From Chromatiaceae bacterium (lineage in GTDB: Bacteria; Pseudomonadota; Gammaproteobacteria; Chromatiales; Chromatiaceae), in NCBI GenBank assembly GCA_049654905.1, contig JBASIS010000047.1, forward strand, positions 1 through 56,952: DNA of 56,952 bases, given 5' to 3'. This document shows, in pieces, positions 15,233 to 43,081 of this stretch; position 1 is the first letter of the stretch; every line of letters begins with the position of its first letter. The notes beneath the pieces were generated by a model. That model made no database searches, was not told the DNA's origin, and saw only the letters and a program-made list of their open reading frames with translations. The position numbers were made by a program, and so were the translations under genes.

Positions 15233-15366
15233 GGGCGAGAGCAAATGCCCGGCGAGTTTTTTACCGATGCCGGGTGCTGCATACCAGCGTGATTCCGCAA
15301 TATCAAGAGTGCCGTCGAGCAGTCGGTTGGCATTCCATTCTATACAAACGACTGGAGCCAACCACG

Positions 15367-15627
15367 TCATCCCGGGATCAATGAAATGAGGGGAAAGTTC
15401 TCGGGTTTGCGAATTGACTCAACGGAAAGGTCAACGTCAAGTTCAGGCCAATATAGATGATTTTCCGTTGGCCGTTCAATCTCGGAGATCTGCCCGATGG
15501 TTGCCGACTTAAACCACGGAAACTCTGAAAAGGGTACCGCCAGTTCCTCCTTGTCATCCAGCAGAATCCAGAAGCAGTGCCTGGACACATGGGTGACTTC
15601 AGCCGATAAAGTGGCGATGCCAGGCAT
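15367..15627 (-). CDS. DUF2442 family protein
   Basis: MPGIATLSAEVTHVSRHCFWILLDDKEELAVPFSEFPWFKSATIGQISEIE fits the DUF2442 pattern; sits in the low-GC islet and overlaps its partner gene by 29 nt. Confidence 0.6.
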   Translation of the reverse strand: MPGIATLSAEVTHVSRHCFWILLDDKEELAVPFSEFPWFKSATIGQISEIERPTENHLYWPELDVDLSVESIRKPENFPLISLIPG

Positions 15628-15838
15628 CTTGAATCTCCTGAATGTGTCCTTCAACAACGGCTTGCGCTTGATAAATCTGCGTCTTCGAAAGCCCAATATT
15701 CACTGCCAAGTGTACCGACGGAGTCAGCCAGAATTTCGCTTCACCATCCGGGTGTGCGACGTGGACATGGATACGGGGCTCCTCGCGAGAGAAGAAAAAC
15801 AATCTGAACTGGCCATCACGAACAATTGTTGGCGCCAT
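15599..15838 (-). CDS. DUF4160 family protein
   Basis: MAPTIVRDGQFRLFFFSREEPRIHVHVAHPDGEAKFWL is the typical DUF4160 core; start set at ATG (rc) 15838. Confidence 0.6.
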   Translation of the reverse strand: MAPTIVRDGQFRLFFFSREEPRIHVHVAHPDGEAKFWLTPSVHLAVNIGLSKTQIYQAQAVVEGHIQEIQDAWHRHFIG

Positions 15839-15967
15839 ATAGACTAAATGCCGTGTTGGTGGTTTTTTGAAATGGCCTGACGACTGGCTAGCCGGCCCCC
15901 GATACCGCGCCGGTATGGCCTTGAGATTTAGCACTGAACTCACGCGCGGTATTGGGTCGGTGCTGAG

Positions 15968-16882: not shown

Positions 16883-16989
16883 ATTTTGGTTGGCTCAGCC
16901 GTAGGGACACCGGTTACCCGGCCCCCGGGTAAAGTCCCGGACGTATGGTTTTCCCGCATCCGGTTCCGCCTCCGGTGCTCCTGTCCTAG

Positions 16990-17160
16990 GTGACGGCCGG
17001 GGAGATCGCAGGCTACTTTCGGCAGGCGTCAGCCCAGGCACAACGGATCAATTGGCAGTTTCGACAACTCGTCGATGCCTTGCAACTGCTGTTCGTTAAT
17101 TTGGCTCAATCTTCTGCCGGAAACGAGACCGATTGGGATGGGTGGAAGGCTGGCAAACTT
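16990..17160 (+). pseudogene. Possible remnant of a tyrosine-recombinase N-terminal SAM-like domain
   Basis: EIAGYFRQASAQAQRINWQFRQLVDALQLLFVNL loosely resembles the core-binding helix of integron/Xer-like integrases; no catalytic domain follows. Weak call from motif memory only. Confidence 0.25.
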
Positions 17161-17199: not shown

Positions 17200-18315
17200 C
17201 TAACCCCCAATGATCGTTGCCGAAATCGTCTGTGGTATGGGCATGGCTACCCTGTGCACCCGTGTGCTCAGGCCGCAAAATAATTCGTAGTTGATCGTGC
17301 CGGCGGCCTGGGCGATCTCCTCCACCGGCAGGCCGCGACCCCAGAGGATGACCTCGTCGCCGGGCTGGGTTCCGGGGGCGAGGCGCAGATCCAGGCTGAT
17401 ACTGTCCATGGAGACCCGCCCGATCAGGGCTACCCGCCGCCCCCCCACCAGCACCGGCGTGCCGGAAGGGGCATGGCGGGGGTAGCCGTCGCCATAGCCG
17501 ATGGCGGCCACGCCCACCGGCATGTCTTCCGGGCAGGAGAAGGTGCCCCCATAGCCGATGCGGTCCCCGGCGTGGAAGTGATGGACGGCGGCAATCTGGG
17601 TTTTGAGGGTCATCACCGGCTCCAGGCCCACTTCCCCCGCGCTCAGACCCGCGAAGGGCGAGCCACCGTAAAGCATGATGCCCGGCCTCACCCAATCAGC
17701 CCGGGCAGCCGGACAGGCGAGGAGGCCGCCGGAGTTGCCGATGTTCAAGGCCTGGCCCGGCCCAGCCAGGGCCCGCAGGCGCTGACATTGGCGGTCCGTC
17801 AGGGGGTCCTCGGGGTTGTCGGCATTGGCCAGATGGGTCATGAGACCCGGCAGCGGTGCCACCCGCGGGCAGGCGGCCAGTCGCGACTGGATGGCGGGCA
17901 CCTCCGCTGGATCGAGGCCCAGGCGGTGCATCCCTGTATCAACCTTGATCCAGATGCGTAGCGGGGGGCCGGGTGGCAAAGTCTCCAGCCAGGTCATCTG
18001 TTCGCCTTGGTGCAGCGCCAGGTCGAGTCGGTGCGCTTGGGCGGCGGCGGTCTCGTCGGTGGAGAGGGCGCCGCTCAGCACCAGGATGGGTTGCCCAACC
18101 CCCGCTCCGCGCAGGCGCAGGGCCTCCTCGACCCGGGCCACGGCGAAGCCATCCGCCGCCGTCAGGGCCGCCGCCGCACGCTCCAGGCCGTGGCCATAGG
18201 CATCCGCCTTGATGACGGCCCAGATGCGACTGGTGGGGGCCCGCTGGCGCGCCACGCCCAGGTTATGGCGCAGAGCCGCCAGGTCGATCAGGGCGCGGGG
18301 GCCGCTGAACCTCAC
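17200..18315 (-). CDS. alr: Alanine racemase
   Basis: PLP-lysine context AVIKADAYGHG; C-terminal YELFCGLSTRVHRV. GTG start overlaps the dnaB TGA (GTGA); dnaB-alr synteny. Confidence 0.92.
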   Translation of the reverse strand: MRFSGPRALIDLAALRHNLGVARQRAPTSRIWAVIKADAYGHGLERAAAALTAADGFAVARVEEALRLRGAGVGQPILVLSGALSTDETAAAQAHRLDLALHQGEQMTWLETLPPGPPLRIWIKVDTGMHRLGLDPAEVPAIQSRLAACPRVAPLPGLMTHLANADNPEDPLTDRQCQRLRALAGPGQALNIGNSGGLLACPAARADWVRPGIMLYGGSPFAGLSAGEVGLEPVMTLKTQIAAVHHFHAGDRIGYGGTFSCPEDMPVGVAAIGYGDGYPRHAPSGTPVLVGGRRVALIGRVSMDSISLDLRLAPGTQPGDEVILWGRGLPVEEIAQAAGTINYELFCGLSTRVHRVAMPIPQTISATIIGG

Positions 18316-20984
18316 CGGTAGCCTTCGTCGCCGTAAACGTCCGAGATGTAGTTCTCGAACTTGGTGTACTTGCCCAGGAAGGTTAGCCGCGTGGTACCGA
18401 TGGGCCCGTTACGCTGCTTGCCGATGATGATTTCGGCGACCCCCTTGTCCTTGCTGTCCTCGTGATAAACCTCGTCGCGGTAAATAAAAACAATGAGATC
18501 CGCGTCCTGTTCGATGGCTCCGGAGTTATGACTGATGATGCCGTCCGCCAGCCAACTGGCAGAGCCGGGGACCGTGAGATCGAAGACCTCCTCCTCCCCA
18601 GCCTCCTCAATGGCGACGATGCGATCCCAGAAGATGTCGCTGCTGGCCTGATTGCGTAGTGGCTCGTCGTCCAGGAGTTCGGCATAGCTCGCCAGAGTTT
18701 GACGCGATGGCGCGAAGTTGAAGTGTGCCTGGCCGCCATAGGAGGTACCACGCATCTGGGCCATCCCTCGGGTAGTGACACCTTGGGAACGCATGACCGC
18801 ACGAACCTGGTCGAAGACCTGGACAGGTAAAGTGTCCAAATTAGTGTTGGGGACTGTATGGGCAATCAGGGCGCTAAGCAGCTTGGCCTGGTTTTCTCTG
18901 GGGCCAAAGGCCCCGACCTCTCCGAGAAAAAGCCGTTGCTGTTCCGCGCCCCTGATCCAGACCATATAGGTAGTGCGGTATTGCTCGCTCGTCACGGCCT
19001 GGATGCGTCCGCGGATACCCAGGCGGAGCAAAAGGGCCATGACATCGTCAGCCAGGCCTTGACTGTTGGTGCTCAGGTGGACACCGTGACTGCCTCGCTG
19101 ACCCGGTTTGCGGGGAGAGATGGTACCGTCGGTAGCCCATAGATGTCTCAGGAAGAGGGCGATTTGCTCGTTGGCGAGTTGGAAGAGGGCCGATGGCACC
19201 CGCTTTTCGTGAGACCGTTGGCCAAAAATCCCCAGACTGCGCAGCCAGAGGTTGATACCCGCTGGATGCCAGCGATTACCATTGCCGCTGAATACCAGTT
19301 GATGCCAAGCCCCCTTGCCTTCATGGCGATTGACCTGAACGCCGAAGTGCTGGATTGCGGAATCAGACACTATCCGGCTATTGGCATCGGATGCCGTGGT
19401 ATAGCGTAAGGGCTGGCCCTTGAGGTAGCTGCCGTCACCCATCAGGTGGGCAAGCAGAATGATTTCCGGCTCGGGCCAAACCAGGGCTGTGGAGGGTTCT
19501 GGCACTTGCCGCGCGGTACCCAGGCGGTCACCCGCACGGAGTTCACCGATGGTACGCCAACCCTCCGCGCCATAAAGCCGGTGGTTGGCCGTGCCACGCA
19601 GGCGGCGTCCACTGGCTAGTCGGACCTCGAATACGGGTTTAGGGCCAACACGCCAAACCTTATCCGAGGTGGCCTTGATCAGCCTGCCCTGTTCATTCAT
19701 CGAGAGCACTTCCGGGGTCTGGCCGACCAGGTCGCGAATGGGAACCCGGCTGCCATCGGCCAGCAAGACTAAGGTATCCCCGGTCACGCACTCGCGCAGA
19801 TCCGACATCACCGGCCGCTTGTTGGGGCGCTGCTCCAGGCTGCGGTTGAGCTGGGAGAGGGCGACGACGGGGACCTTGAGTTCCTTGGCCAGGGCCTTGA
19901 GGGAGCGGGAGATGGCGGAGATCTCGGTGGCGCGGTTCTCGCTGTTGCCCGGCACCTGCATGAGTTGGAGGTAATCCAGGACGATGAGCGCCAGGTCGCC
20001 GTGCTCGCGTTTGAGGCGGCGTGCGCGGGCGCGGACCTCGGTCGGCGATAGGGCCGGGGTGTCGTCAATATAGACGGGGGCGTCTGCCAGCATGTTCACC
20101 GCCGAGGTCAGGCGCGGCCACTCGTCCTCCTCCAGTTTGCCGGTGCGCACCCGGTGCTGATCAATGCGTCCCAGGGAGGACATCATGCGCATGGCCAGGG
20201 CGTCGCCGGGCATCTCCATGCTGAAGATGGCGACCGGCCGTTTCACCTCCAGGGCCACGTTTTCCGCCAGGTTCATCGCGAAACTGGTCTTGCCCATTGA
20301 GGGCCGCCCCGCCACGATGATGAGGTCCGAGGGCTGGAGACCGGAGGTCATCTCGTCGAAATCGGCAAAGCCGGTGGGCAGGCCGGTGATGGGCTCGTTG
20401 CGCTGAAAGAGGATCTCGATGCGCTCCACGGCCCGGCCGAGGAGGCCGCGCAGGGACTGGAAGCCACCACCGCCGCGCTGTTCCTGCTCGGCGATTTCGA
20501 AGACCCGCCGTTCCGCCTCGTCCAGCAGCTCCGCCACCTCCCGGCCCTCGGTGTTGAAGGCGATGTCGCTGATGCCGGTGCCGACGGAGATGAGCTGGCG
20601 CAGCACCGAGCGCTCGCGCACGATCTTGGCGTAGGCCTTGACGTTGGCGGCGCTGGGGGTGCCGGTGGCGATGACGCCCAGGTAGGGCAAGCCGCCGGCG
20701 TCCTCGAGTTGGTCGGTGCGCTCCAACATTTCGGCCAGGGTGACGACGTCGAAGGGCTGGTCACGGGCCGCCAGGTCGCGGATGGCGCCAAAGATGAGAC
20801 GGTGTTCGCGCCGGTAGAAATCGCCCTCGCCCACCTTGTCGGCCACCGAATCCCAGGTCTGGTTGTCCAGCATGAGGCCGCCGAGCAGGGACTGTTCCGC
20901 CTGGTTCGAATGGGGGGGGATGCGCAACCGTTCGCCGGACGGCAGTTCCTGTTCGGGGTAAGGCAGGTCGTAGGGGTCGGACAT
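18312..20984 (-). CDS. dnaB: Replicative DNA helicase DnaB, interrupted in frame by a 422-aa intein (extein 398 + 70 = 468 aa)
   Basis: PPHSNQAEQSLLGGLMLD, Walker A AGRPSMGKTSFA, LIVLDYLQLM, then ...MSDLRE | CVTGDTLV...IISHN | SGAIEQDADLIVFIYRDEVY. Confidence 0.95.
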   Translation of the reverse strand: MSDPYDLPYPEQELPSGERLRIPPHSNQAEQSLLGGLMLDNQTWDSVADKVGEGDFYRREHRLIFGAIRDLAARDQPFDVVTLAEMLERTDQLEDAGGLPYLGVIATGTPSAANVKAYAKIVRERSVLRQLISVGTGISDIAFNTEGREVAELLDEAERRVFEIAEQEQRGGGGFQSLRGLLGRAVERIEILFQRNEPITGLPTGFADFDEMTSGLQPSDLIIVAGRPSMGKTSFAMNLAENVALEVKRPVAIFSMEMPGDALAMRMMSSLGRIDQHRVRTGKLEEDEWPRLTSAVNMLADAPVYIDDTPALSPTEVRARARRLKREHGDLALIVLDYLQLMQVPGNSENRATEISAISRSLKALAKELKVPVVALSQLNRSLEQRPNKRPVMSDLRECVTGDTLVLLADGSRVPIRDLVGQTPEVLSMNEQGRLIKATSDKVWRVGPKPVFEVRLASGRRLRGTANHRLYGAEGWRTIGELRAGDRLGTARQVPEPSTALVWPEPEIILLAHLMGDGSYLKGQPLRYTTASDANSRIVSDSAIQHFGVQVNRHEGKGAWHQLVFSGNGNRWHPAGINLWLRSLGIFGQRSHEKRVPSALFQLANEQIALFLRHLWATDGTISPRKPGQRGSHGVHLSTNSQGLADDVMALLLRLGIRGRIQAVTSEQYRTTYMVWIRGAEQQRLFLGEVGAFGPRENQAKLLSALIAHTVPNTNLDTLPVQVFDQVRAVMRSQGVTTRGMAQMRGTSYGGQAHFNFAPSRQTLASYAELLDDEPLRNQASSDIFWDRIVAIEEAGEEEVFDLTVPGSASWLADGIISHNSGAIEQDADLIVFIYRDEVYHEDSKDKGVAEIIIGKQRNGPIGTTRLTFLGKYTKFENYISDVYGDEGYR
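18525..19790 (-). mobile_element. DnaB intein with embedded LAGLIDADG homing-endonuclease domain
   Basis: Block A CVTGDTLVLLADG (Cys1 codon at 19790-19788), block B GTANHRLY (TxxH), LAGLIDADG-like LLAHLMGDGSY and FLRHLWATDGTI, block F/G VFDLTVPGSASWLADGIISHN followed by +1 Ser (18524-18522). Confidence 0.9.
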
Positions 20985-31451: not shown

Positions 31452-31772
31452 GCCTGCCCCGTTTCTTGAAGGCCTTGCGCGGGCGACATCCCGCGGGATA
31501 ATCGGGCGGGGTACTGCTGCTGGTCTGTCATCGGCTCTTGAAGAAATCCAATAAAATTATGTAATAAAGCGTTGCTGGCAGTAACAGCCCTTACCGAGGC
31601 CAAGGGCCATGCCCAACAGAAAGATCCCTCGGCTGCGAGGTTTTGGGGGGTCGCCGGTGGCCTTGGCGCGGGCGGTTCAGGCAATCTGTCGGTACAATGC
31701 TGGCTGGATTGTAACAAAATAATTAAAAATGGCGAGGGCCTAGGGTTGCCGCCAAGAAGAGGTAGATTTTTC

Positions 31773-32654
31773 ATGAGTCAAGACATGTCTTCCCCCCTGC
31801 CGCCAGGGGACGCGCCCGCACCCCTGGACCACCGTATCATCACCGACCAGGTCCGCGCCGCCCTGGTGGAGGACCTCGGAGATGGGGATCGCACCGCCCG
31901 CCTGCTGCCGGCGGACCAGGTCGCGCGGGTGGAGCTGATCACCCGCCAGGAGGCGGTCATCTGCGGTCGCGCCTGGTTTGACGAGACCTTCCACCAGATC
32001 GATGGCCGTGTCGTCAGCGACTGGCGGGTGAGCGACGGGGATCGCGTCGGCCCCGGCGACTGTCTGTGCCGAATGCAGGGCCCCACCCGTGCCCTCCTCA
32101 CGGGGGAGCGTACCGCCATGAACTTCCTGCAGACCCTGTCTGGCACCGCCACCCGTGCCCGCCATTACGCCCAGGTCGTCGCGGATCTGCCGGTGCGCCT
32201 CCTCGACACCCGCAAGACCATCCCGGGTCTGCGTCTGGCCCAGAAATACGCCGTGCGCTGTGGCGGCTGCCACAACCACCGCCTGGGGCTGTTTGACGCC
32301 ATCCTGATCAAGGAGAACCACATCCTGGCGGCGGGCTCCATCGCCGCCGCCCTCGCCGCCGCCCGCGATCTGGCCGAGGGTCTTCCGGTGGAGATCGAGG
32401 TCGAAAGCCTCGCCGAGGTCGAGCAGGCCCTGGCGGCGGGCGGTACCCACCTCCTCCTGGACAACTTTAGCCCCGAGGCCCTGCGTCAGGCGGTGCGCCT
32501 GGTCGCGGGTCGCGCCCGTCTGGAGGCCTCCGGTGGCATCACCCTGGAGACCCTGCGAGTCATCGCCGAGACCGGCGTGGACGACATCTCCATCGGTGAT
32601 TTGACGAAGGATCTGGTTAGCGTCGATCTCTCCATGCGGTTTTTGCCGGCTTGA
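31773..32654 (+). CDS. nadC: Nicotinate-nucleotide pyrophosphorylase (quinolinate phosphoribosyltransferase)
   Basis: [65 protein letters not shown]. Start at ATG 31773. Confidence 0.92.
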
Positions 32655-32826
32655 GCCCAATAGCGAGCTTTGGCCGACCAGTCCCAACAGGAGCTTGGGT
32701 GCCTGGATTCGTCCTTTGGTCCAGTAAGAATTGAGAAATTACCTCGGCTATCTAGGCGAGATCGCCCCGGGTGGCAAGCCGCCCGGTTCCCCCGCAAGCG
32801 ATCAACCCTGACGAAAGGATCGCGCC

Positions 32827-35800
32827 ATGCCCCGCATTTTCGACAATATCGACCAGACCCTGCTACCGGCCTTGCGGGAGACGCTGACGGTGGGCGAGCG
32901 GGCCGACTTCTGCGTCGGCTATTTCAACCTGCGGGGTTGGCGCTATCTGGCGGATCTCATCGACCGCTGGGCGGGTGGCGAGGGCCACTGCTGCCGGCTC
33001 CTTGTCGGGATGCAGTCCACGCCCTCCGAGGAACTGCGCCAGGCCATGCGTATCCCTCTGGGCGGCGAGTCCTTGGAAGAGAGCCTGGACAATCAGACCG
33101 CCCTGCGCGAGAAGCGCCGGCTCGCCGAGGACTTCCGGCGCCAACTCTGTTTCGGCGCGCCCACCAACGAGGACGAGGCGGCCCTGCGCCAACTTGCTTT
33201 GCAGCTCCATCGGCGCCGGCTGCTGGTCAAGGTCTTCCTGTCCCACCCCCTGCACGCCAAGCTGTATCTCGTCCACCGGCGGGATGCCAACAACCCCATG
33301 ACGGGCTTCGTCGGTAGCAGCAACCTCACCATGGCCGGCCTGGCCAAGCAGGGGGAGCTGAACGTCGATGTGTTGGACCATGATGCCTGTGCCAAGCTGG
33401 CGGATTGGTTCGAGGACCGCTGGCGGGAGCGCTGGTGCCTCGACATCTCCCAGGAACTGGCCGCCATTATCGACGCGAGCTGGGCCGCCGACCGCCTGGT
33501 CCCGCCCTATCACGTCTATCTCAAGATGGCCTATCACCTGGCCCAGGAGGCACGTACCGGACTGCTGGAATTTCGCATCCCGGCCATCTTTGGCGACGCC
33601 CTCTTCGATTTTCAGGTGGCGGCGGTGAAGATTGCCGCCCACCATCTCAACAAGCGCGGTGGCGTTCTCATCGGCGATGTCGTGGGCCTGGGCAAGTCCC
33701 TGATGGCCACCGCCCTGGCCAAGATTTTCGAGGACGACTTCGCCACCGAGACCCTCATTATCTGCCCCAAAAACCTGGTGACCATGTGGGAGGACTATGT
33801 CCACCGCTACCGGCTCCATGCCAAGGTCATGTCCCTGTCCCGGGTCCTGACTGAGCTGCCGGAGCGGACCCGCCGCTACCGGGTGGTGCTGATCGATGAG
33901 TCCCACAATCTGCGCAACAAGGAGGGCAAGCGCTGGCGGACCATCCGCGACTACATTGATCGCAACGACAGCCTGTGCATTCTGCTGTCCGCCACCCCCT
34001 ATAACAAGACCTATCTGGACCTGTCCGCCCAGATCTCGCTCTTCCTCAAGGAGGATGCGGACATCGGCATCCGCCCGGAACGCCAGATCGCTGCCATGGG
34101 TGGCGAGCACGCCTTCGCCGCCCGTCATCAATGCCCGGTCTGTTCCCTGGCCGCCTTCAATAAGAGCGAGGACCCGGACGACTGGCGGGAGCTGATGCGC
34201 CTCTACATGGTGCGCCGCACCCGTGGCTTCATCATGCAGAACTATGCCCAGGAGGATGAGCGGGGGCGTTACCTGATTTTCCCCGATGGCACCAAATCCT
34301 ATTTTCCCCGGCGCCTGCCCCGGAACATCAGCTTCCCTATCCGGGACGAGGACCCCGACGACGCCTACGCCCGCTTCTATTCCGCCCCGGTGGTCAACAC
34401 CATCAACACCCTGATCCTGCCCCGCTATGGCCTGGGCAACTATCTCGCTCCCCAACCGAAACACCCGCCCACCCCCCACCAGGAACGCCTGATCGCCGGC
34501 CTGTCCCGGGCCGGGACCCGCCTGATGGGCTTTTGTCGTACCAACCTCTTCAAGCGCCTGGAGAGCGCTGGCCCTGCCTTTTTGCTCTCCATCGAGCGGC
34601 ACATTCTGCGCAATTTCATCGTCCTGCACGCCATCGATGCGGGGTTGGAAATCCCCCTGGGAACCCAGGCCGCCGCCCTGTTGGACCCCACCTATTACGA
34701 CGGGGATGCCGATGACATCCTGGCGCCGGGGGTCGGGACCGGTGTGGAAGAGGACGACAACGAGGAGGGGATCCCGGATGGGCGGGCAGCGGAAGAGGGT
34801 GCCCGTCACGGAGGTACCCATGAAGCGGGTGGTGACGCCCCCGGACCTGTCGCGACTTCACCCTCGGGCCTGCGCACCGAGGCTGACTTCCGAGACCGCG
34901 CCCGGTTGGTGTATGCCAGCTTCGGCGGTCCTCTCAAGAGCCGCTTCAAGTGGTTGCCTTGCCATCTATTTATCCCAGACCTCGCCCAGGACCTGCTCGC
35001 CGATGCACGCGCCCTGATCGGTGTCCTGGCGACCTGTGGTGATTGGGACCCACGCCGGGATGCCAAGCTGGCGGAGTTGCACCGGCTCATCAGCCAGGTC
35101 CACTCCGAGGAAAAGCTGCTGATCTTCACCCAGTTCGCCGATACGGCGCGATATCTGGCCAGCCAGCTCAGGTTGCGGGGCGTCAAGGCCATTGACCAGG
35201 CCACGGGGCAGAGCGCGGACCCGACGGCACTGGCCTGGCGCTTCGCCCCCGACGCGAACGCCAAGCGCGCTCAAATCCCCAAATCCGCCGAGTTGCGCGT
35301 GCTCATCGCCACCGATGTCCTCTCCGAGGGCCAGAATCTCCAGGACGGCGCCATTGTCGTCAATTACGACTTGCCTTGGGCCATCATCCGCCTCATCCAA
35401 CGCGCCGGCCGCGTGGACCGTATCGGCCAGCGCGCCGACCGCATCCTCTGCTACTCCTTCGTCCCCGCGGACGGCGTCGAGCGTCTCATCCGCCTGCGCC
35501 AGCGCGTCCGCCAGCGTCTGGCCCAGAACGCCGAGGTCGTGGGCTCCGACGAGAGCTTTTTCGAGGATGATCCGGACGATCAGGGTATTCGCGATCTCTA
35601 CACCGAACGGAATGGCATCCTGGATGACGACAGCGACACGGAGGTGGACCTCGCCTCCTTTGCCTATCAGATCTGGAAGAATGCCACCGACGCCGATCCC
35701 AGCCTGGTCGCCCGGATTGAGGCCCTGCCCGATGTTGTTTACGCCACTAAGGCCCATGCCCCGCTCCCCGCCGCGCCCGCGGGCATCCTGGTGTACACCC

Positions 35801-36330
35801 GTACCGCCCAGGGCAACGATGCCCTAGCCTGGATGGACGAAGCCGGTAACCCGGTTACTCAGTCCCAGCTCACCATCCTCAAGGCCGCCGCCTGCCCCGC
35901 CGATACCGAGGCCCTGGCCCGGGGCGAGCACCATCACGCCCTCACCCAGCAGGGACTCAGGCACATCATGGACGAGGAAAAATGCTTTGGGGGCACCCTG
36001 GGTCGGCCCTCTGGCGCCCGCTACAAGACCTATGAGCGGCTCAAACGCCATCGCGCCCACTTGGGCGACCGGCGCGACCTCTTCGTCACCGACGAACATA
36101 TCCGCCAGCTTGACCGGGCTCTGGAGGAGATCTATCGCTACCCCTTGATGCAGAGCGCCATTGATACCCTCAACCGCCAGCTCAAGGCCCGGATTGAAGA
36201 CCACCAGCTCGCCGACCTGATCCTCCGCTTGCGCGAGGATGGGCGCCTCTGCCTGATCAGCGACGAAGAAGCGTCCCATGAGCCCCGGCTGATCTGTACC
36301 ATGGGCCTGACCCGGCGTGACTCAAACTAG
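32827..36330 (+). CDS. PLD-family (single HKD) nuclease domain fused to an SNF2/Rad54-like SF2 ATPase (1167 aa)
   Basis: HKD motif HPLHAKLYLV...GFVGSSNLTMAGL (H143/K145, nt about 33253); SNF2 motif I GDVVGLGKS (about 33685), motif II VLIDESHNLRN (about 33895), LLSATP, helicase-C ATDVLSEGQNLQD and QRAGRVDRIGQ. Confidence 0.88.
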   Translation: MPRIFDNIDQTLLPALRETLTVGERADFCVGYFNLRGWRYLADLIDRWAGGEGHCCRLLVGMQSTPSEELRQAMRIPLGGESLEESLDNQTALREKRRLAEDFRRQLCFGAPTNEDEAALRQLALQLHRRRLLVKVFLSHPLHAKLYLVHRRDANNPMTGFVGSSNLTMAGLAKQGELNVDVLDHDACAKLADWFEDRWRERWCLDISQELAAIIDASWAADRLVPPYHVYLKMAYHLAQEARTGLLEFRIPAIFGDALFDFQVAAVKIAAHHLNKRGGVLIGDVVGLGKSLMATALAKIFEDDFATETLIICPKNLVTMWEDYVHRYRLHAKVMSLSRVLTELPERTRRYRVVLIDESHNLRNKEGKRWRTIRDYIDRNDSLCILLSATPYNKTYLDLSAQISLFLKEDADIGIRPERQIAAMGGEHAFAARHQCPVCSLAAFNKSEDPDDWRELMRLYMVRRTRGFIMQNYAQEDERGRYLIFPDGTKSYFPRRLPRNISFPIRDEDPDDAYARFYSAPVVNTINTLILPRYGLGNYLAPQPKHPPTPHQERLIAGLSRAGTRLMGFCRTNLFKRLESAGPAFLLSIERHILRNFIVLHAIDAGLEIPLGTQAAALLDPTYYDGDADDILAPGVGTGVEEDDNEEGIPDGRAAEEGARHGGTHEAGGDAPGPVATSPSGLRTEADFRDRARLVYASFGGPLKSRFKWLPCHLFIPDLAQDLLADARALIGVLATCGDWDPRRDAKLAELHRLISQVHSEEKLLIFTQFADTARYLASQLRLRGVKAIDQATGQSADPTALAWRFAPDANAKRAQIPKSAELRVLIATDVLSEGQNLQDGAIVVNYDLPWAIIRLIQRAGRVDRIGQRADRILCYSFVPADGVERLIRLRQRVRQRLAQNAEVVGSDESFFEDDPDDQGIRDLYTERNGILDDDSDTEVDLASFAYQIWKNATDADPSLVARIEALPDVVYATKAHAPLPAAPAGILVYTRTAQGNDALAWMDEAGNPVTQSQLTILKAAACPADTEALARGEHHHALTQQGLRHIMDEEKCFGGTLGRPSGARYKTYERLKRHRAHLGDRRDLFVTDEHIRQLDRALEEIYRYPLMQSAIDTLNRQLKARIEDHQLADLILRLREDGRLCLISDEEASHEPRLICTMGLTRRDSN

Positions 36331-36368
36331 AGAGAAGTACCCATGATCATGGATTCTTGCGCATAACC

Positions 36369-39300
36369 ATGGACAAACTCCAGATCGAGCGGGTACGCGA
36401 CCGGCTGCAGGCCTTCGACTTCAAGCGCCTCTTTATCGAGGAGTTGGGTTGGTCCCACGCCCGCGGTGCCAAACCCGTCACCCTAATGATTGCCAACGAA
36501 AGCTGGCAGGCAACGCCCATCGCGGAGCTTTCGGGTGTCGTTGTCTTTCTCCTGGCTGGGCTGCCGGACCGGTCAACCCGGTTAGCCATTCACAAGGCCC
36601 TGTCCGAGCATGCTCATGAAAATCTAGTCATTTTCGTTGACCATGCCTTTGAATCCACTCAAAGCCTTTGGCTCTGGGTGAAGCGCGAGGGCAGCAAACG
36701 CTTCCCGCGCGAGCATCTCTATGTCAGGGGCCAGCCGGGCGATCTTTTTATCTCCAAGCTGTCCGGCATCGTTGTCGATATCAATGAATTGGACGAGCGG
36801 GGTCGCTTTCCCCTCGCCCAACTCGTCGAGCGCATGCGCTCCGCTCTGGATGTGGAGCGCATCACCAAAAAATTCTTCAGGGAATACGATGCGCAGCGAC
36901 TGGCCTTCGTCGAATTGATTCAAGGTATTCCCGACGAGCGCGACCGCCGTTGGTATGCCTCGGTCCTGATGAATCGCCTCATGTTCGTCTGGTTCCTCCA
37001 GCGCAAACACTTTCTGGATGGCGGCAACCCCAACTATCTCTTGGACCGGCTCAGGGACAGCCAGCTCAGCGCCAAGGACGCTTTTTTCAGTGGCTTTCTG
37101 CAAGCCCTGTTTTTCGAGGGCTTCGCCAAGCCACCGGAACAACGTTCCAGTGCTGTCAGGCGGCTGATCGGCGATATCCGCTACCTCAACGGCGGCCTCT
37201 TCATTCCTCACCGCCTGGAGCGCGACTATGGTCCCGCCATTCGCATCCCGGATAGTGCCTTCGAGAACCTGTTTCACCTGTTCGGCGCCTACTCCTGGAA
37301 CCTCAATGACTCGCCCGGAGGCCTGGATAACGAAATAAACCCGGATGTACTCGGCTACATCTTCGAGAAGTACATTAACCAGAAGGCCTTTGGCGCCTAC
37401 TATACCCGCCCGGAGATCACCGAATACCTCTGCGAGCGCACCATCCACCGGCTGATCCTCCAAAAGGTCAATCAGCCCGCCGTGCCGGAGTTAGGACTGC
37501 CCGCCCGCCGCTTTGCCGGTGTGCCCGAGCTGTTGATGGGTCTGGATGCCACCCTTTGCCGGGAGCTGCTGCATACCATTCTGCCCGGTCTCGCCCTCCT
37601 GGACCCGGCCTGCGGGTCCGGCGCCTTCCTGGTCGCCGCCATGAAGACCCTGATCAATATCTACTCGGCGGTGATCGGGCGGATCAAATTCCTCAACGAC
37701 CAAGGACTCAGCGAACAGCTCAAGCGTTGGGAGACCGAACATAAAAGCCTCGCCTACTTCATCAAGCGCAGCATCATTACCGATAACCTGTTCGGCGTGG
37801 ACATCATGGAGGAAGCGACCGAGATCGCCCGATTGCGGCTGTTCCTCGCTCTGGTAGCATCGGCCCAGACCGTCGACCAACTGGAGCCCTTGCCTAATAT
37901 CGACTTCAATATCCTGGCAGGCAACTCACTCATCGGTCTGATCAGGGTCGATGCCGAGCAATTCGACGCGAGCAAGGGTGAGTTCGGGGGACAGATCGAT
38001 CTATTCCGCAAGAGCTACCGCGAAATTCTGGCCGAAAAGAATCGCTCGGTGGACAACTTCCGCCATACCGCATCCTGGGCGGGAGATACGGACCTGTCCT
38101 CGCTCAAGATCAACATCGAAAAACAACGGCAAGAGGCCCAGGCCACCCTTAACGACCTGCTGCTCGATGAGTGGGATCGGGCTGGGATCCGTTTCGAGCA
38201 AGCGACCTGGGATGGGGCCAAGGGCAAGGTCGGCAAGGCCCAGAAACGCAAGCTCAAGATCGAGGACCTGGCAGCGCTGCACCCCTTCCACTGGGGCTTC
38301 GAGTTTGACGAAATACTGCACCAGCGCGGGGGCTTCGACGCCATTATTACCAACCCGCCCTGGGAGATCTTCAAGCCCAACGCCAAGGAGTTTTTTCAGG
38401 AATACTCCGATTTGGTCACTGAGAATAAGATGACCATCAAGGATTTTGAGAAAGAACAGGCCCGTCTTCTCAAAGATCCCAAAATCCGTGCCGTTTGGCT
38501 GGAATACCTGTCGCGCTTCCCACATGTCTCCTCCTGGTTCCGCGCTGCGGCACAATTTAAGCACCAGTCGGCCATCGTCAATGGTAGGAAGACCGGTAGC
38601 GACATCAACCTCTATAAACTCTTTACCGAGCAATGTACCAACCTTCTGCGAGATGGCGGAGGTTGCGGTATTGTCATTCCTTCCGGGATCTACAGCGATC
38701 TTGGGGCCAAGGGCCTGAGGGATTTGCTTTTCTCAAGATGCGCCATCAATGATCTAGTGAGCTTCTCAAATGAGCGGTTCGTTTTTCAGGAGGTTCATCA
38801 CTCAGTAAGATTCTGCTTGCTGTCATTCGAGTACGGCGGTGATACAGATGCATTCAACGCTGTATTTCGAATCAATCCTCGTGAAGCCGTTGGGCCGGCG
38901 GAATTGGATAGTTTTCTACATTCGGCTATCAATCGGATCAGGATTTCAATATCGCTCGTGCGTAAGCTTTCACCAGACTCGCATTCGGTTCGTGAGTTTC
39001 GGTCTGACCTTGATATGCTAGTCGCGGAGAAGATGGTGAAATTCCCGTTGTTTGGACAGCAGGTGGACAGGGGATCGGGTTTACACCTCGCCACTGAGTT
39101 CCATATGACAAACGACAGCGGTCTGTTTAAGACTGAATCCGCCAATGGACGGTTACCGCTTTTTGAAGGGAAGATGATTCATCAGTTCTCCTGTAGTTGG
39201 GGCCATCCAAAATACTGGCTGGACGAAAAAGAGGCACGGGCAGCATTACTTGGACGCATCCCCGATACCGGACAACTGCTTGACTACCAGGGCTATAGAC

Positions 39301-39833
39301 TTGGTTTCCGTGACGTAGCCAGGAATACTGATGCGCGAACGATGATCTGCGCCGTATTACCGAAATGTATTTTTACAAACCACAAGTTGCCTTATGTGCC
39401 GATTGCTCATTTGCAAACGATGTTATTTGTAGCTGCGATCTGGAATAGCTTGGCGTTCGATTACTTGGTCCGCCAGTGCGTCACTGCGAACATTACTTTC
39501 TTCATAGTTTACCAGCTACCTATGCCCCGCTTGACTGAGCAAGATGCAGGCTTTAGCGCCATCATGTCCCGCGCCGCCCGCCTAACCTGCACCACTCCGG
39601 AATTCGATGAACTAGCCCAGCAGGTTGGTATGCAATCCCACCGCGAAAGCGCCACCGACCCCGTAGATCGCGCCAAGCTACGGGCCGAGCTGGACGGCTT
39701 GATTGCATACCGCTATGGCCTCACCGAAGCCGAGTTTAGCCATTTACTGTCCACCTTTCCTCTGGTTTCGGAGCCGGTGAAGATTGCCGCACTTAATGCC
39801 TATCGGGATGTGGAGCGAGGTCTGATTCGATGA
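36369..39833 (+). CDS. Large MmeI/Eco57I-like gamma-class N6-adenine DNA methyltransferase with target-recognition domain
   Basis: Helical spacer RYLNGGLF...GAYYTRPEI, SAM motif I LLDPACGSGAFLV (about 37602), FGVDIMEEATEIARLRLFL, NILAGNSLIG, motif IV NPPW (38352-38363), C-terminal LDGLIAYRYGLTEAEFSHLL. Start is ATG 36369 or TTG 36357. Confidence 0.88.
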   Translation: MDKLQIERVRDRLQAFDFKRLFIEELGWSHARGAKPVTLMIANESWQATPIAELSGVVVFLLAGLPDRSTRLAIHKALSEHAHENLVIFVDHAFESTQSLWLWVKREGSKRFPREHLYVRGQPGDLFISKLSGIVVDINELDERGRFPLAQLVERMRSALDVERITKKFFREYDAQRLAFVELIQGIPDERDRRWYASVLMNRLMFVWFLQRKHFLDGGNPNYLLDRLRDSQLSAKDAFFSGFLQALFFEGFAKPPEQRSSAVRRLIGDIRYLNGGLFIPHRLERDYGPAIRIPDSAFENLFHLFGAYSWNLNDSPGGLDNEINPDVLGYIFEKYINQKAFGAYYTRPEITEYLCERTIHRLILQKVNQPAVPELGLPARRFAGVPELLMGLDATLCRELLHTILPGLALLDPACGSGAFLVAAMKTLINIYSAVIGRIKFLNDQGLSEQLKRWETEHKSLAYFIKRSIITDNLFGVDIMEEATEIARLRLFLALVASAQTVDQLEPLPNIDFNILAGNSLIGLIRVDAEQFDASKGEFGGQIDLFRKSYREILAEKNRSVDNFRHTASWAGDTDLSSLKINIEKQRQEAQATLNDLLLDEWDRAGIRFEQATWDGAKGKVGKAQKRKLKIEDLAALHPFHWGFEFDEILHQRGGFDAIITNPPWEIFKPNAKEFFQEYSDLVTENKMTIKDFEKEQARLLKDPKIRAVWLEYLSRFPHVSSWFRAAAQFKHQSAIVNGRKTGSDINLYKLFTEQCTNLLRDGGGCGIVIPSGIYSDLGAKGLRDLLFSRCAINDLVSFSNERFVFQEVHHSVRFCLLSFEYGGDTDAFNAVFRINPREAVGPAELDSFLHSAINRIRISISLVRKLSPDSHSVREFRSDLDMLVAEKMVKFPLFGQQVDRGSGLHLATEFHMTNDSGLFKTESANGRLPLFEGKMIHQFSCSWGHPKYWLDEKEARAALLGRIPDTGQLLDYQGYRLGFRDVARNTDARTMICAVLPKCIFTNHKLPYVPIAHLQTMLFVAAIWNSLAFDYLVRQCVTANITFFIVYQLPMPRLTEQDAGFSAIMSRAARLTCTTPEFDELAQQVGMQSHRESATDPVDRAKLRAELDGLIAYRYGLTEAEFSHLLSTFPLVSEPVKIAALNAYRDVERGLIR

Positions 39834-40954
39834 GGTTGCAATCCGTCCGCATACATAACTTCAAGGCCATCGTCGATAGCAAGGTCGTTCGGCTCGGCCC
39901 GCTGACCGCCTTTGTCGGCCAGAATGGTGCTGGTAAATCCAGCCTGATCGAGGCCTTGGAGACCTATCAGGCCATCGTTCGGGACGGCCTGGATCTCGCG
40001 ATGCAGCGCTGGCTTGGCATTGAGCATGCCCGCCACAAGGGCCAGGAGACCAAGGAGCGCCTGGGCCAGCCGGTCAATCCGATCAGCTTCGAGTTGAGGC
40101 TTGGCTTGTCGCCGCGCCGGGTCTCGCGGTTGTCTATGTCGGTCAGCAACGACCCGGCTTTCAACCATATCTTCATCTCGGACGAACGTCTCACCTTCCA
40201 GGACGGGACCTTCGTCGGGCGGGACCCGATAGGCGCGAGCCAGACCTATGGCAGGGGCCGCTCAATACTGACTGCGCCCATGGCCGATGCCAGGGATCTA
40301 GCCGAGCATGTCCTCAACTGGCAGTTCCTGGCCCTAAGCCCCGAGCGCATGGGGCTTCCCGTTCCCCAGCAACGGACCGGCGGCGGTGTGCGGTTGGCCC
40401 GGGATGGCTCGAACGTCGCCGACTTCCTTCTCGATCTGCGCCGGCGGGATCAGAACGCCTTTGACGGCATCGTCGCAACCATGGGTTATGTGTTGCCCTA
40501 TGCCAAGGACCTCCAAACCTCTCTGACGACAGAGATCGAGCGCAAGGCCTGGCTGCAACTGACCGAGGCCGATTTCAAGGTCCCCGGCTGGATGCTGTCC
40601 ACGGGTACCCTGCGCCTGCTGGCCCTGTTGGCCCTGCTGCGTCACCCCAAGCCGCCACCCTTGATCCTGGTGGAGGAGCTTGAGAATGGCCTGGACCCAC
40701 GGAGCATGCACCTGCTGGTGGAGGAAATTCGCAACGCGGTGCTGGACGGAGTGACTCAGGTGATCCTGACGACCCATTCACCCTATCTCTTGGACCTGCT
40801 GACGCTCGATCACCTGGTGCTGGTGGAGCGTGACGGGAGTGGCGCACCGCGCTTCCGGCGTCCCGCGAATGATGCATCCCTGGCGAATTGGGCCGGGCGG
40901 TTCGCCCCAGGGAAGCTCTATACCATGGGTAGCCTCTCGGGGAGTGGTGCATGA
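39830..40954 (+). CDS. ABC-type (AAA_15/AAA_21-like) ATPase
   Basis: MRLQSVRIHNFKAIVDS...LTAFVGQNGAGKSSLIEAL (Walker A, K36), LILVEELENGLDP (Walker B), TTHSPYLL (H-loop). ATG overlaps the methyltransferase TGA (ATGA at 39830-39833). Confidence 0.85.
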   Translation: MRLQSVRIHNFKAIVDSKVVRLGPLTAFVGQNGAGKSSLIEALETYQAIVRDGLDLAMQRWLGIEHARHKGQETKERLGQPVNPISFELRLGLSPRRVSRLSMSVSNDPAFNHIFISDERLTFQDGTFVGRDPIGASQTYGRGRSILTAPMADARDLAEHVLNWQFLALSPERMGLPVPQQRTGGGVRLARDGSNVADFLLDLRRRDQNAFDGIVATMGYVLPYAKDLQTSLTTEIERKAWLQLTEADFKVPGWMLSTGTLRLLALLALLRHPKPPPLILVEELENGLDPRSMHLLVEEIRNAVLDGVTQVILTTHSPYLLDLLTLDHLVLVERDGSGAPRFRRPANDASLANWAGRFAPGKLYTMGSLSGSGA

Positions 40955-41556
40955 AGGTCGGCTTTGTGTTCGAGTGTGGTCCCAAGGGTGCCGACGTGCA
41001 GGTGTGCGAATATCTGGCCATGGCAATCCGCTCGGGGATTGTTCCCGTGTCGCGCACGCTGGACAATAAAGCCAATCTGCTGAGAGATGCTGGCCGGGTG
41101 GCCGCGGCGCTACTGGCCGACGGCTGCGAGCGGGTGCTCATCGTCTGGGATTTGCGTCCGGCCTGGCCGGACAAGAAAGCCAAACCCTGTCGCCACGACG
41201 AGCGCGCGGCGATGCTTAAAGCCCTTGAAGACGCGGGAGTCGCCGATGTCCCGGTCTTTTTGGTCTGCGTCGAGCAGGAGTTGGAAAGCTGGCTGTTGAC
41301 GGATGAGACAAAGCTCGCGGCCTATCTATCGACACCGGCGCACCCATTGATCGTGCCCGGGGTGCGACAGCCGGACCGTGTCCCGAACCCCAAGGCCTTG
41401 ATGATGAATTACTTCAGGGCCGCACGTGGCTGGCGCTACGAGGACCGGACCCACGCCATCCGGGTTCTCGGTGCTGGCGCTTTGGACCTGAAGAAGCTGA
41501 GACGCTCGGCCAGTTTCGCCCGATTCGAGTCCAAGCTCACCGAGGATTTTCGCTGA
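40951..41556 (+). CDS. DUF4276 family protein (predicted Toprim-like)
   Basis: MKVGFVFECGPKG (Toprim-like Glu), VLIVWDLRPAW, VCVEQELESWLL. ATG overlaps the ATPase TGA (ATGA at 40951-40954). Family call from motif memory. Confidence 0.65.
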   Translation: MKVGFVFECGPKGADVQVCEYLAMAIRSGIVPVSRTLDNKANLLRDAGRVAAALLADGCERVLIVWDLRPAWPDKKAKPCRHDERAAMLKALEDAGVADVPVFLVCVEQELESWLLTDETKLAAYLSTPAHPLIVPGVRQPDRVPNPKALMMNYFRAARGWRYEDRTHAIRVLGAGALDLKKLRRSASFARFESKLTEDFR

Positions 41557-41586
41557 AGCCTGGAAAATATCTGGAGATCACCCCCC

Positions 41587-41883
41587 TTGCACGTCACCCT
41601 GGTCCATGTCCACGTCAAACCCGCTGATATCGACTCCTTCATCGCCGCCAGCCGCGCCAATCACGAGGCCTCGGTCCGGGAGCCGGGCAACCGGCGCTTT
41701 GATGTGCTCCAGAATCCGGAGGATGCCGGACACTTCATCCTCTACGAGGCCTATGCCTCGGCCGAGGCGGCCGCCGCCCATAAGCAGACGGCGCACTACG
41801 CCCGGTGGCGCGATACCGTGGCGGCCATGATGGCCGCGCCACGCCAGGGCGTACCCATGATTGGACTTTTCCCGATAGACTGA
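41587..41883 (+). CDS. Antibiotic-biosynthesis-monooxygenase (ABM/YgiN-like) domain protein
   Basis: VTLVHVHVKPADIDSFIAASRANHEASVREPGNRRFDVLQ...FILYEAYASAEAAAAHKQTAHY; TTG start. Confidence 0.75.
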   Translation: MHVTLVHVHVKPADIDSFIAASRANHEASVREPGNRRFDVLQNPEDAGHFILYEAYASAEAAAAHKQTAHYARWRDTVAAMMAAPRQGVPMIGLFPID

Positions 41884-41884
41884 A

Positions 41885-43081
41885 ATGATGAATCCCTTTT
41901 CAATTGGCCGCCTGCCGCGCATCGAGTTCGGGTCGGGCGCCATCGCCCAACTACCCGCTATCGCCGCTCGCCATGGCCGGCGCTTGCTGATCCTGACCGG
42001 TGCTCACTCCTTTACGTCATCCCCGCATTGGGAAGAGTTGCGTAAGGCGCTGGCGGAGGGCTATTTCGGGGGGGAGATCGTGCGCATCCCGGGCGAGCCA
42101 TCGCCGGAAGAGATCGATAGCATCGTGCAACTCAGCCGGGGGGGCCGCATCGATGCGGTGATCGGCATCGGTGGCGGCAGCGTGCTGGACGCCGCCAAGG
42201 CCGTCGCGGGTTTGCTGAAGCCCGGCAACAGCGTCATGGACCACCTGGAGGGCGTCGGGCCCGAGCTACCCTATCGCGGTCCGGCCACGCCCTTCATCGC
42301 CGTCCCCACCACGGCGGGCACGGGCTCGGAGGCGACGAAAAATGCCGTGCTCACCCGACAAGGCCCGGATGGGTTCAAAAAGTCCTTCCGCGACGACGCC
42401 TTGATGGCCGAATACGCCATCGTCGATCCGGACCTGCTGGCGTCTTGTCCAGCGGCTTCGATCGCCGCCAACGGCATGGATGCCTTGACCCAATTGCTGG
42501 AGGCCTATGTCTCGACCCGCGCCAATCCCATGACCGACGCCCTGGCGCTGGCGGGGCTGGCGGCGGTGCGCGATGGCTTGCTGGTCTGGTATCGGGGCGG
42601 GGAGGGCGCCGCCGCCGGGCGGGAGAAGATGGCCCTGGCGGCCCTCTGGTCCGGCGTCTGTCTGGCCCAGGCCGGGCTGGGGTCGGTGCATGGTCTGGCC
42701 CAGCCGCTGGGCTCGTTCTTTCCCATCTCGCATGGCGTGGTCTGCGGCACCCTGGTGGCGGCGGCGACGCGGATCAACATCGAGGCCCTGTTGGCGCGGG
42801 CCCCGGACGTGACGGCGCTCACCAAGTACGCCACCATTGGCCGCCTGCTGGGGGCCGCGCCGGGCGTCAGCGATGACGAAGCCCGAGACACCCTGCTTGA
42901 TACCCTGAAGGCATGGACCCGGCTCCTGAAGCTGCCACTGCTCTCGGAACTGGGCGTAGCGGTGGGAGATTTTCCCCGCATCCTGGCCAACGCGCGGGGC
43001 TCCAGCATGAAGACCAACCCCATCGCCTTGCAGGACGCCGAGATCGAGCGGATTCTCCAGATGCGGTTGCTGGCGGCTTAG
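41885..43081 (+). CDS. Iron-containing (group III) alcohol dehydrogenase
   Basis: GIGGGSVLDAAKAVAG, AVPTTAGTGSEAT, GSVHGLAQPLG, HGVVCG. Confidence 0.85.
   Translation: MMNPFSIGRLPRIEFGSGAIAQLPAIAARHGRRLLILTGAHSFTSSPHWEELRKALAEGYFGGEIVRIPGEPSPEEIDSIVQLSRGGRIDAVIGIGGGSVLDAAKAVAGLLKPGNSVMDHLEGVGPELPYRGPATPFIAVPTTAGTGSEATKNAVLTRQGPDGFKKSFRDDALMAEYAIVDPDLLASCPAASIAANGMDALTQLLEAYVSTRANPMTDALALAGLAAVRDGLLVWYRGGEGAAAGREKMALAALWSGVCLAQAGLGSVHGLAQPLGSFFPISHGVVCGTLVAAATRINIEALLARAPDVTALTKYATIGRLLGAAPGVSDDEARDTLLDTLKAWTRLLKLPLLSELGVAVGDFPRILANARGSSMKTNPIALQDAEIERILQMRLLAA

Follow-up and report, generated by a model that had tools for sequence, protein, structure and literature searches.

Type-2 BREX (bacteriophage exclusion)-related (BR) systems comprise a DUF499 ATPase, a DUF3780 protein, an N6-methyltransferase, and a helicase that bears an HKD nuclease at its N-terminus, and a stand-alone DUF3780 protein (MtsB) is present in 98% of Type-2 BR loci. 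A 2026 preprint gave this type, previously called Gao_RL, the name MANTIS and reported hemimethylation of 6-bp asymmetric sites, a requirement of the AAA+ ATPase MtsA and of MtsB for methylation or the licensing of cleavage, and a structure of MtsD as a dimer of phospholipase D (PLD)-superfamily 2 (SF2) chains similar to SauUSI. Another preprint defined the PADLOC candidate system HEC-01, a pair of an ATP-binding cassette (ABC) ATPase and a Toprim protein, inside Hma (Type-1 BR) systems, and OLD-type pairs of ABC ATPase and nuclease inside BREX and BREX-related operons have been proposed to serve as backup effectors. Here, we analyzed computationally a DNA stretch of 56,952 nucleotides (nt) from a Chromatiaceae bacterium (assembly GCA_049654905.1, contig JBASIS010000047.1), referred to as the window, which contains a cassette of genes for a PLD-SNF2 helicase-nuclease (gene 1), an adenine methyltransferase (gene 2), an ABC ATPase (gene 3), and a DUF4276 protein (gene 4). 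In searches with PADLOC at the level of single profiles and with NCBIfam at its cut-offs, which no NCBIfam model reached for any of the four proteins, the whole cassette was assigned to no named system, in line with a previous sequence-only reading of the window. We consider it fairly probable that the cassette combines, in a single operon, two modules that are distinct in evolution and probably also in function, with genes 1 and 2 forming module A and genes 3 and 4 forming module B.

The list of open reading frames (ORFs) agrees with the four co-directional genes of the sequence-only reading and with their coordinates (Table 1). The ORF of gene 2 opens with TTG at 36357 and contains an in-frame ATG at 36369, which was taken as the start because the N-termini of homologues agree (consensus MxKLxIER...). 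The stop codon of gene 1 (TAG, 36328-36330) is separated from gene 2 by 26 nt (TTG) or 38 nt (ATG), and ATGA stop/start overlaps join gene 2 to gene 3 (39830-39833) and gene 3 to gene 4 (40951-40954); the spacing and the translational coupling proposed earlier are both seen in the sequence. The gap between genes 1 and 2 is filled by a tiny ORF (36343-36366, ATGATCATGGATTCTTGCGCATAA, MIMDSCA) with a purine-rich stretch on its 5' side and an end 2 nt short of the gene 2 ATG. Ribosomes leaving gene 1 might be passed on to gene 2 by way of this short frame.

Gene 1 matched the Pfam families PLDc_2, RE_NgoFVII, SNF2-rel_dom, ResIII, and Helicase_C, with the PLD/HKD region located N-terminal of SNF2 and Helicase_C and with an uncharacterized C-terminal region of about 250 aa. 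Residues H143, K145, G163-N166, G287-K290, and D357-S359 were invariant in 90 homologues. The protein is probably dimeric because each chain carries only one HKD motif. Its best PADLOC match was the profile 'HKD+Snf2' (partial only, 150 bits); DrmD profiles also matched in part, the NCBIfam DrmD model with 120 bits versus a cut-off of 610, and sequence and profile searches against solved structures returned generic SF2 helicase C-domains only. We propose from this domain content that gene 1 encodes a nuclease-motor subunit.

Gene 2 is composed of an N-terminal domain, a methyltransferase core, a target-recognition domain, and a conserved C-terminal tail. Judged by its Pfam matches (Eco57I, MmeI_Mtase, N6_Mtase), the core is a gamma-class N6-adenine methyltransferase, and the gamma-class order is found, with motif I before motif IV and a variable target-recognition segment thereafter. 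The PADLOC profile PDLC03628 (REase_MTase_IIG) matched residues 13-369 only (1e-114), and a second, different Type IIG profile matched residues 412-1139; sequence and profile searches against solved structures gave nothing useful. The N-terminal domain carries a Type IIG label, yet no recognizable nuclease signature was found there. Its AlphaFold model (mean pLDDT, or predicted local distance difference test, of 76) shows an alpha/beta part (residues ~1-130) and a helical part (~160-310), for which a Foldseek search of the PDB returned nothing with E < 0.01, the top hits being MPN domains and a splicing endonuclease with low template modeling (TM)-scores. Across 80 homologues, E84 and R106 were the only invariant polar residues of the alpha/beta part, and no conserved PD-(D/E)xK residues were detected in the N-terminal domain. 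With neither these residues nor a fold match in gene 2, gene 1 is the only recognizable nuclease of module A, and the earlier description of gene 2 as MmeI-like holds for the methyltransferase core but not for the N-terminal domain. From the adjacency of the two genes and their co-variation, this domain is predicted to couple gene 2 to gene 1.

When the window was aligned with its sister strain (L083) by blastn, identity was 95.6% as far as 38732 and 93% from 39555 onward; the segment in between could not be aligned, being replaced by unrelated sequence in that strain, and its left boundary was identical in the comparison with L085. The GC content drops to 0.53 at 38001-40000 compared with about 0.65 in the flanks, and this drop coincides with the replaced segment of gene 2. 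The stretch from 38733 to 39554 therefore looks like a recent swap of the target-recognition domain, and with it of specificity, by recombination.

Gene 3 matched AAA_21 (3e-28) and AAA_15 and conserves Walker A, Q-loop, signature motif, Walker B, and H-loop, with K36, Q165, S257/G259, E282/E283, and H316 invariant in 32 homologues. PADLOC HEC-01A matched the entire protein (4.5e-44; residues 2-371 aligned with 5-360 of 363), AriA and GajA profiles matched in part only, and the closest solved structure was the OLD-family nuclease 6p74 (N-terminus only). Gene 4 scored 33.8 bits with Pfam DUF4276 (cut-off 30.2) and 2e-8 with PADLOC HEC-01B, and found no match in the sequence and profile search of solved structures; the acidic residues E8, D67, E108, E112, and D165 were invariant in 27 homologues. 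DUF4276 has been placed in the Toprim superfamily (PMC12065111; likewise in the HEC-01 preprint). While the Pfam search and the motif scan agree with all four domain calls and motifs of the sequence-only reading, its view that the arrangement could not be placed does not hold for genes 3 and 4, a pair already described as embedded in other defense systems. In the sister strain (L083, 11676-12290, and L084, two assemblies possibly derived from the same data), a 2-bp TA insertion shifts the frame of gene 4 at about codon 89. This strain shares the nadC/ABM context with the window, its genes 1 and 3 are 96-97% identical to those of the cassette, and genes 1-3 are intact.

A metagenome scan with peptide patterns from gene 3 itself yielded at least 43 loci with gene 3 relatives, 26 of which were evaluable, with at least 46% identity to gene 3 and enough upstream sequence. 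In 25 of the 26, a gene 2 resembling the window protein over its full length (class A) was located directly upstream of the gene 3 relative (46-96% identity), and gene 1 preceded gene 2 wherever the contig extended that far. The lone exception (L095, 4151-11720) has a truncated gene 1, another Eco57I-type methyltransferase, and a BsuBI/PstI endonuclease before genes 3 and 4; here, a Type II system seems to have taken over the methyltransferase slot. Gene 2 also stood directly before genes 3 and 4 in eight further contexts, seven of them full cassettes: Ca. Contendobacter-like contigs with a genomic neighborhood different from that of the window, the sister strain with the same neighborhood, two further long contigs (one from Leptothrix ochracea), and two plasmids, pANACY.05 of Anabaena cylindrica (annotated with generic names only) and plasmid 4 of Calothrix NIES-4101. 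The eighth is a degraded copy on a long contig (L130), in which a gene 1 fragment and a truncated gene 2 are directly followed by genes 3 and 4. The gene order recurs in more than 30 independent contigs from several phyla plus two cyanobacterial plasmids; the overlap of genes 2 and 3 is kept in most four-gene loci, and five loci have inserts of 0.5-2.3 kb at this junction. A recurrent order in unrelated contigs, mostly with the same overlaps, is therefore more than chance. No gene 3 relatives were found in viral contigs. Distant ATPase-DUF4276 pairs (24-27% identity to gene 3) occur outside class-A operons, and one stands alone on a Desulfotalea plasmid. On plasmid pHX3 of Aeromonas veronii (L133, 5077-11827), such a pair (27% identity to gene 3) is located between a site-specific DNA methyltransferase and a DEAD/DEAH helicase, in what appears to be a Type III-like operon carrying an insert of this sort.

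Viewed from gene 1, the four-gene arrangement is a minority form. In a set with one representative genome per species, relatives of gene 1 from many phyla were confirmed at at least 588 of at least 600 matched stretches; the best 80 loci (57-73% identity over the full length), a sample biased by the query used and with simple ORF calls, were analyzed. About 72 of the 80 carry, after gene 1, a same-strand gene that shares the first ~360 residues of gene 2, usually at a spacing of -4 to +45 nt, so that the genes overlap in some loci; in about 20 loci, inserted genes amounting to 0.4-1.9 kb separate the pair. When all ORFs of the 80 loci were clustered, the only families occurring in at least 28 loci each were gene 1, gene 2, and a DprA-like gene of ~200 aa, which a purpose-built hidden Markov model (HMM) detected in 35 of the 80 loci and not in the window. 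The DprA-like protein matches Pfam DNA_processg_A and resembles the DprA-like antitoxins PsyrA and ShosA. Between gene 2 and the DprA-like gene, variable genes were found (PIN, YhcG, Schlafen, DUF3800, MTaX1-HNH, DarG, transposases, and a large Dsr1-like gene).

Gene 2 of these loci falls into class A and a class B that shares only the N-terminal domain and the methyltransferase core with the window protein and matches one PADLOC Type IIG profile end to end. Genes 3 and 4 were found in four of seven evaluable class-A loci and in none of 42 class-B loci, and the DprA-like gene in two and 31, respectively. By a hand calculation, the chance of all four positives falling in class A is about 35/211876 = 1.7e-4. 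With genes 3 and 4 missing from 45 of the 49 evaluable species-level loci, the core family is gene 1 plus gene 2, usually with a DprA-like third gene, and the four-gene unit is a minority subtype whose order recurs across phyla. The linkage is one-sided, as close relatives of gene 3 are essentially always found behind a class-A gene 2, while most loci with genes 1 and 2 have no genes 3 and 4. For this lineage, the idea of a hard-wired, split OLD-like effector was borne out. Some class-A gene 2 homologues of about 1311 aa carry a C-terminal Schlafen AlbA_2 fusion (P0176, P0177, P0191-P0196), and in one locus (L128, 3624-5309) genes 1 and 2 have a Schlafen/HATPase_c_4 gene embedded between them.

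The distribution suggests that PLD-SNF2 helicase, methyltransferase, and DprA-like protein form a widespread three-gene system, of which no description was found in the literature searched. For the pair of genes 1 and 2, no experimental study was found, and the only notice found was a table entry on neighboring genes. On plasmid pSYSX of Synechocystis PCC 6803 (L132, 43696-51129), a gene 1 homologue is followed by an embedded VapBC pair and the class-B methyltransferase Slr6050 (M.Ssp6803IV); this core system adjoins a ThiF/E2/multiubiquitin cluster. The asymmetric site tentatively attributed to Slr6050 is GA(m6A)GGC, and segregation of a knockout of its gene was not achieved (PMC6105098), which would fit an active cognate nuclease without proving one.

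The pairwise identities of the parts were compared in 11 loci containing all of them, few and non-independent, so that the values are qualitative. Gene 1 co-varied with the N-terminal domain of gene 2 (Spearman 0.76) and gene 3 with gene 4 (0.83), whereas co-variation between the two pairs was weak (0.14-0.45), as was that with the remainder of gene 2. In a neighbor-joining tree of gene 1, those loci that combine a class-A gene 2 with genes 3 and 4 were scattered among class-B loci. To judge from these comparisons, the two gene pairs evolve as separate modules. The sequence-only reading had set independent assortment of the pairs against a four-gene unit; modular evolution was indeed seen, but the linkage of genes 3 and 4 to class-A operons is strict.

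In the two-module reading, module A would be a two-subunit ATP-dependent restriction-modification-like system. Gene 2 would recognize a short, probably asymmetric DNA site via its exchangeable target-recognition domain, mark host DNA with N6-methyladenine, and be coupled to gene 1 by its N-terminal domain, and gene 1, probably as a dimer, would cut unmarked DNA with its SNF2 motor and PLD nuclease. Module B, of the PADLOC HEC-01 kind, would pair an ABC ATPase resembling those of OLD and PARIS with a Toprim (DUF4276) nuclease on a chain of its own; it is placed at the 3' end of the operon in translational coupling with the methyltransferase. It would most likely act as a second-line effector, abortive or nucleolytic, and in this lineage it appears to be a fixed accessory of one methyltransferase class. 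Several points weigh against this reading. All biochemical activities, the contact of gene 1 with gene 2, and what triggers module B are inferred, whereas the domains, the conserved catalytic residues, the linkage of the genes, their modular evolution, and the exchange of the target-recognition domain were observed directly. The full-length AlphaFold model of gene 1 was too poor for a fold search (mean pLDDT 50.6, predicted TM-score 0.28), and the weak values across the pairs rest on the 11 loci mentioned. The metagenome scan sampled close relatives of gene 3 only, so that free-standing members are possible; conversely, strict confinement of the gene 3-4 clade could mean a tighter functional dependence than the term accessory implies. 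The GAAGGC assignment of Slr6050 is tentative, and its essentiality may be independent of the neighboring helicase. Finally, HEC-01 tested alone in E. coli gave no phage protection (HEC-01 preprint).

Genes 3 and 4 may instead act as a guard module, an idea that we put forward only tentatively and hold to be rather doubtful. PrrC, an ABC-type ATPase-nuclease encoded in a Type I restriction operon and held latent by that operon (EcoprrI), provides the model. By analogy, the ATPase of gene 3 would monitor the class-A complex or a phage inhibitor of it, and the DUF4276 nuclease would be released when this first line, the methyltransferase/helicase complex, is blocked. Such a guard would account for the clade having been seen only beside such a methyltransferase and for the lack of protection by HEC-01 when tested on its own. 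In the same scheme, but separately, genes 1 and 2 would constitute a minimal MANTIS-like system in which methylation and restriction need no AAA+ loader.

The confinement of the gene 3-4 clade to positions behind class-A gene 2 and the conservation of the ATGA coupling across phyla would also fit one obligate four-protein machine, in which methylation or the licensing of cleavage depends on genes 3 and 4, as on MtsA/MtsB in MANTIS. That methylation can require a second ATPase is known from MANTIS, and genes 3 and 4 might replace the DprA-like gene, which is typical of class B and mostly absent from class-A loci. We nevertheless judge such a machine unlikely. The gene 4 frameshift beside intact genes 1-3 in the sister strain, the absence of genes 3 and 4 from three of the seven class-A loci, the separate evolution of the modules, and the lack of co-variation of genes 3 and 4 with gene 1 or either part of gene 2 all argue against it; in addition, inserts split gene 2 from gene 3 in several loci, and distant ATPase-DUF4276 pairs are free-standing or located in other restriction operons. 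Somewhat less probable still is that gene 2 is a self-contained Type IIG enzyme and gene 1 an independent SauUSI-like Type IV nuclease that is merely adjacent. This explanation can draw on the 'REase_MTase_IIG' match of the gene 2 N-terminal region, on the end-to-end match of class B, and on PLD-helicase fusions such as SauUSI, which work autonomously on methylated DNA. It conflicts with the near-universal adjacency of genes 1 and 2, including gene overlap and co-variation, and with the poor yield of conserved polar residues and fold matches from the gene 2 N-terminal domain. Moreover, the Pfam scan found no recognizable modified-base reader domain in gene 1, and a Type IV nuclease beside a working adenine methyltransferase would be toxic to its own cell unless the two had different specificities.

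The least credible explanation, to which we give hardly any weight, is that of two unrelated defense systems brought together only by the clustering of defense genes, without a conserved four-gene unit. The absence of genes 3 and 4 from most loci with genes 1 and 2, the insertion hotspot downstream of gene 2 (PIN, YhcG, Schlafen, DUF3800, HNH, DarG), and the recombination of the two modules relative to each other are what such clustering would predict. However, the window is no defense island (nadC, dnaB, alr, recA, alaS, and an efflux pump are neighbors), order and overlaps recur in the independent contigs described above, and the clade was never seen elsewhere among the contexts examined. 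The strict, one-sided linkage argues against mere adjacency and largely refutes this explanation. Two modules kept in one operon remain the reading that we favor.

Table 1. Coordinates of the cassette genes, their motifs and domains, the flanking genes, and examples of the DprA-like gene of related loci (positions refer to the window unless a locus is given).
Feature	Position	Strand	Remarks
gene 1 (P1)	32827..36330	+	1167 aa; N-terminal single-HKD PLD nuclease fused to SNF2/SF2 translocase
gene 1 H143	33253-33255	+	motif scan
gene 1 K145	33259-33261	+	motif scan
gene 1 GSSN163-166	33313-33324	+	motif scan
gene 1 GLGKS287-291 (Walker A)	33685-33699	+	motif scan
gene 1 DESH357	33895-33906	+	motif scan
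gene 2 (P2)	36369..39833	+	1154 aa; predicted methyltransferase and specificity subunit
gene 2 family-specific N-terminal domain	36369-37298	+	residues 1 to about 310
gene 2 motif I DPACGSG412	37602-37622	+	motif scan
gene 2 motif IV NPPW662	38352-38363	+	motif scan
gene 2 target-recognition segment, hypervariable	38733..39554	+	residues about 789-1062; low-GC stretch
gene 3 (P3)	39830..40954	+	374 aa; OLD/AAA_21-type ABC ATPase
gene 3 Walker A GQNGAGKS30-37	39917-39940	+	motif scan
gene 4 (P4)	40951..41556	+	201 aa; DUF4276, Toprim-like, putative nuclease effector
gene 4 E8	40972-40974	+	motif scan
nadC	31572-32654		upstream flank
ABM	41587-41883		downstream flank
Fe-ADH	41885-43081		downstream flank
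DprA-like gene, L022	16714-17349		related locus
DprA-like gene, L004	16728-17258		related locus
DprA-like gene, L007	10287-10970		related locus

The flanking genes agree with the earlier placement of the cassette between nadC and an ABM/alcohol-dehydrogenase pair. The wider window, with dnaB (containing an intein), alr, phosphoribulokinase, radA, recA, cinA, alaS, lysC, and an RND pump, is ordinary chromosome. Terminator-like sites occurred at chance level (7 found versus 7.0 +/- 2.7 in shuffled sequences), and promoter-like matches likewise equaled the shuffled expectation. No convincing internal terminator was found, as had been claimed, but a scan at chance rate yields no positive evidence on this point. 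Rfam yielded no match, direct and inverted repeats in 32500-42000 were short and chance-like without signs of a mobile element or shufflon, and no integrase was present among the genes neighboring the cassette; the sole tRNA is 15 kb away. Elsewhere in the window, the DnaB replicative helicase (18312-20984, - strand) is split by an intein with a LAGLIDADG homing-endonuclease domain. The GC content falls to 0.54 at 15001-17000, where only small ORFs without Pfam matches occur (15497-15847, + strand; 16312-16629, - strand), and the adjoining 429-aa ORF at 13550-14839 (- strand) also had no Pfam match; the region of about 13550-17000 may be foreign or non-coding DNA.

PLD-SNF2 helicase and methyltransferase are among the more widespread restriction-like gene pairs, and a by-product of the analysis that is arguably more notable is the larger, uncharacterized family in which a DprA-like gene joins genes 1 and 2. 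As the core pair comes without the ATPase loader on which methylation by MANTIS depends, it could reveal the minimal needs for self-marking by hemimethylation that is coupled to a motor nuclease. In the four-gene subtype, an ATPase/Toprim pair has stayed with one methyltransferase class across phyla amid reshuffling of the other operon parts, which makes this subtype a clean natural test of the proposal, put forward for BREX, Hma, and related systems, that embedded pairs serve as backup effectors. The target-recognition-domain swap and the gene 4 frameshift of the sister strain provide natural variants as handles, and culturable hosts exist for both the four-gene form (Anabaena cylindrica PCC 7122, pANACY.05) and the core form (Synechocystis PCC 6803, pSYSX).

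The closest characterized relative of the cassette is MANTIS/Gao_RL, although the cassette is not a member of it. Both have an N-terminal HKD/PLD nuclease fused to an SF2/SNF2 motor beside a specificity-carrying N6-adenine methyltransferase, and MtsD is the characterized analogue of gene 1. Asymmetric, hemimethylated sites like those of MANTIS are plausible here given the GA(m6A)GGC site of the homologue Slr6050. In contrast to MANTIS, the DUF499 AAA+ ATPase (MtsA) and the DUF3780 protein (MtsB) are absent from the cassette flanks and from the recurrent families of the 80 related loci, and gene 2 carries the family-specific N-terminal domain of about 310 residues. Hma is set apart by a helicase with a C-terminal PD-(D/E)xK nuclease, a DUF499 ATPase, and a methylase originally of the m5C type.

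The sequence-only reading had proposed a split Type ISP/DISARM-like module; the parts list of an ATP-dependent restriction-modification system stands, while the nearest relative is a different one. The parts that the cassette has in common with class 1 DISARM, Type ISP, and Type III systems are a motor of the SF2/SNF2 kind, a nuclease, and a methyltransferase that acts on adenine and carries a target-recognition domain, and DrmD and DrmMI profiles match genes 1 and 2. In class 1 DISARM, the PLD protein DrmC is separate, whereas PLD is fused to the helicase here; the DrmD match is below cut-off, and neither DrmA nor DrmB (DUF1998) occurs in the window or the related loci, as stated earlier for the window. 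Type ISP enzymes are single chains with an Mrr or PD-ExK nuclease, whereas two ORFs, separate in all related loci, and a PLD nuclease are found here.

Module B resembles PARIS, OLD, and Gabija in pairing an ABC ATPase with a Toprim nuclease. It belongs to none of them, as its DUF4276 partner is a separate, unfused protein, whereas Toprim is fused to the ATPase in OLD and GajA and the AriB Toprim of PARIS is DUF4435. HEC-01 is related to Mad3/Mad4 of MADS; MADS membership was rejected, with MADS3 scoring 114 bits versus 420 and MADS2 46.6 versus 720 and with no further mad-like genes adjacent. At profile level, gene 3 corresponds to HEC-01A and gene 4 to HEC-01B, and the pair is likewise embedded in a helicase/methyltransferase operon; unlike HEC-01, which was defined in Hma, the clade described here is confined to operons of PLD-SNF2 and class-A methyltransferase. 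The cassette is real, conserved, widespread, and unnamed, and conceptually it lies within known kinds, as a motor-nuclease restriction-modification system with an embedded ABC/Toprim module.

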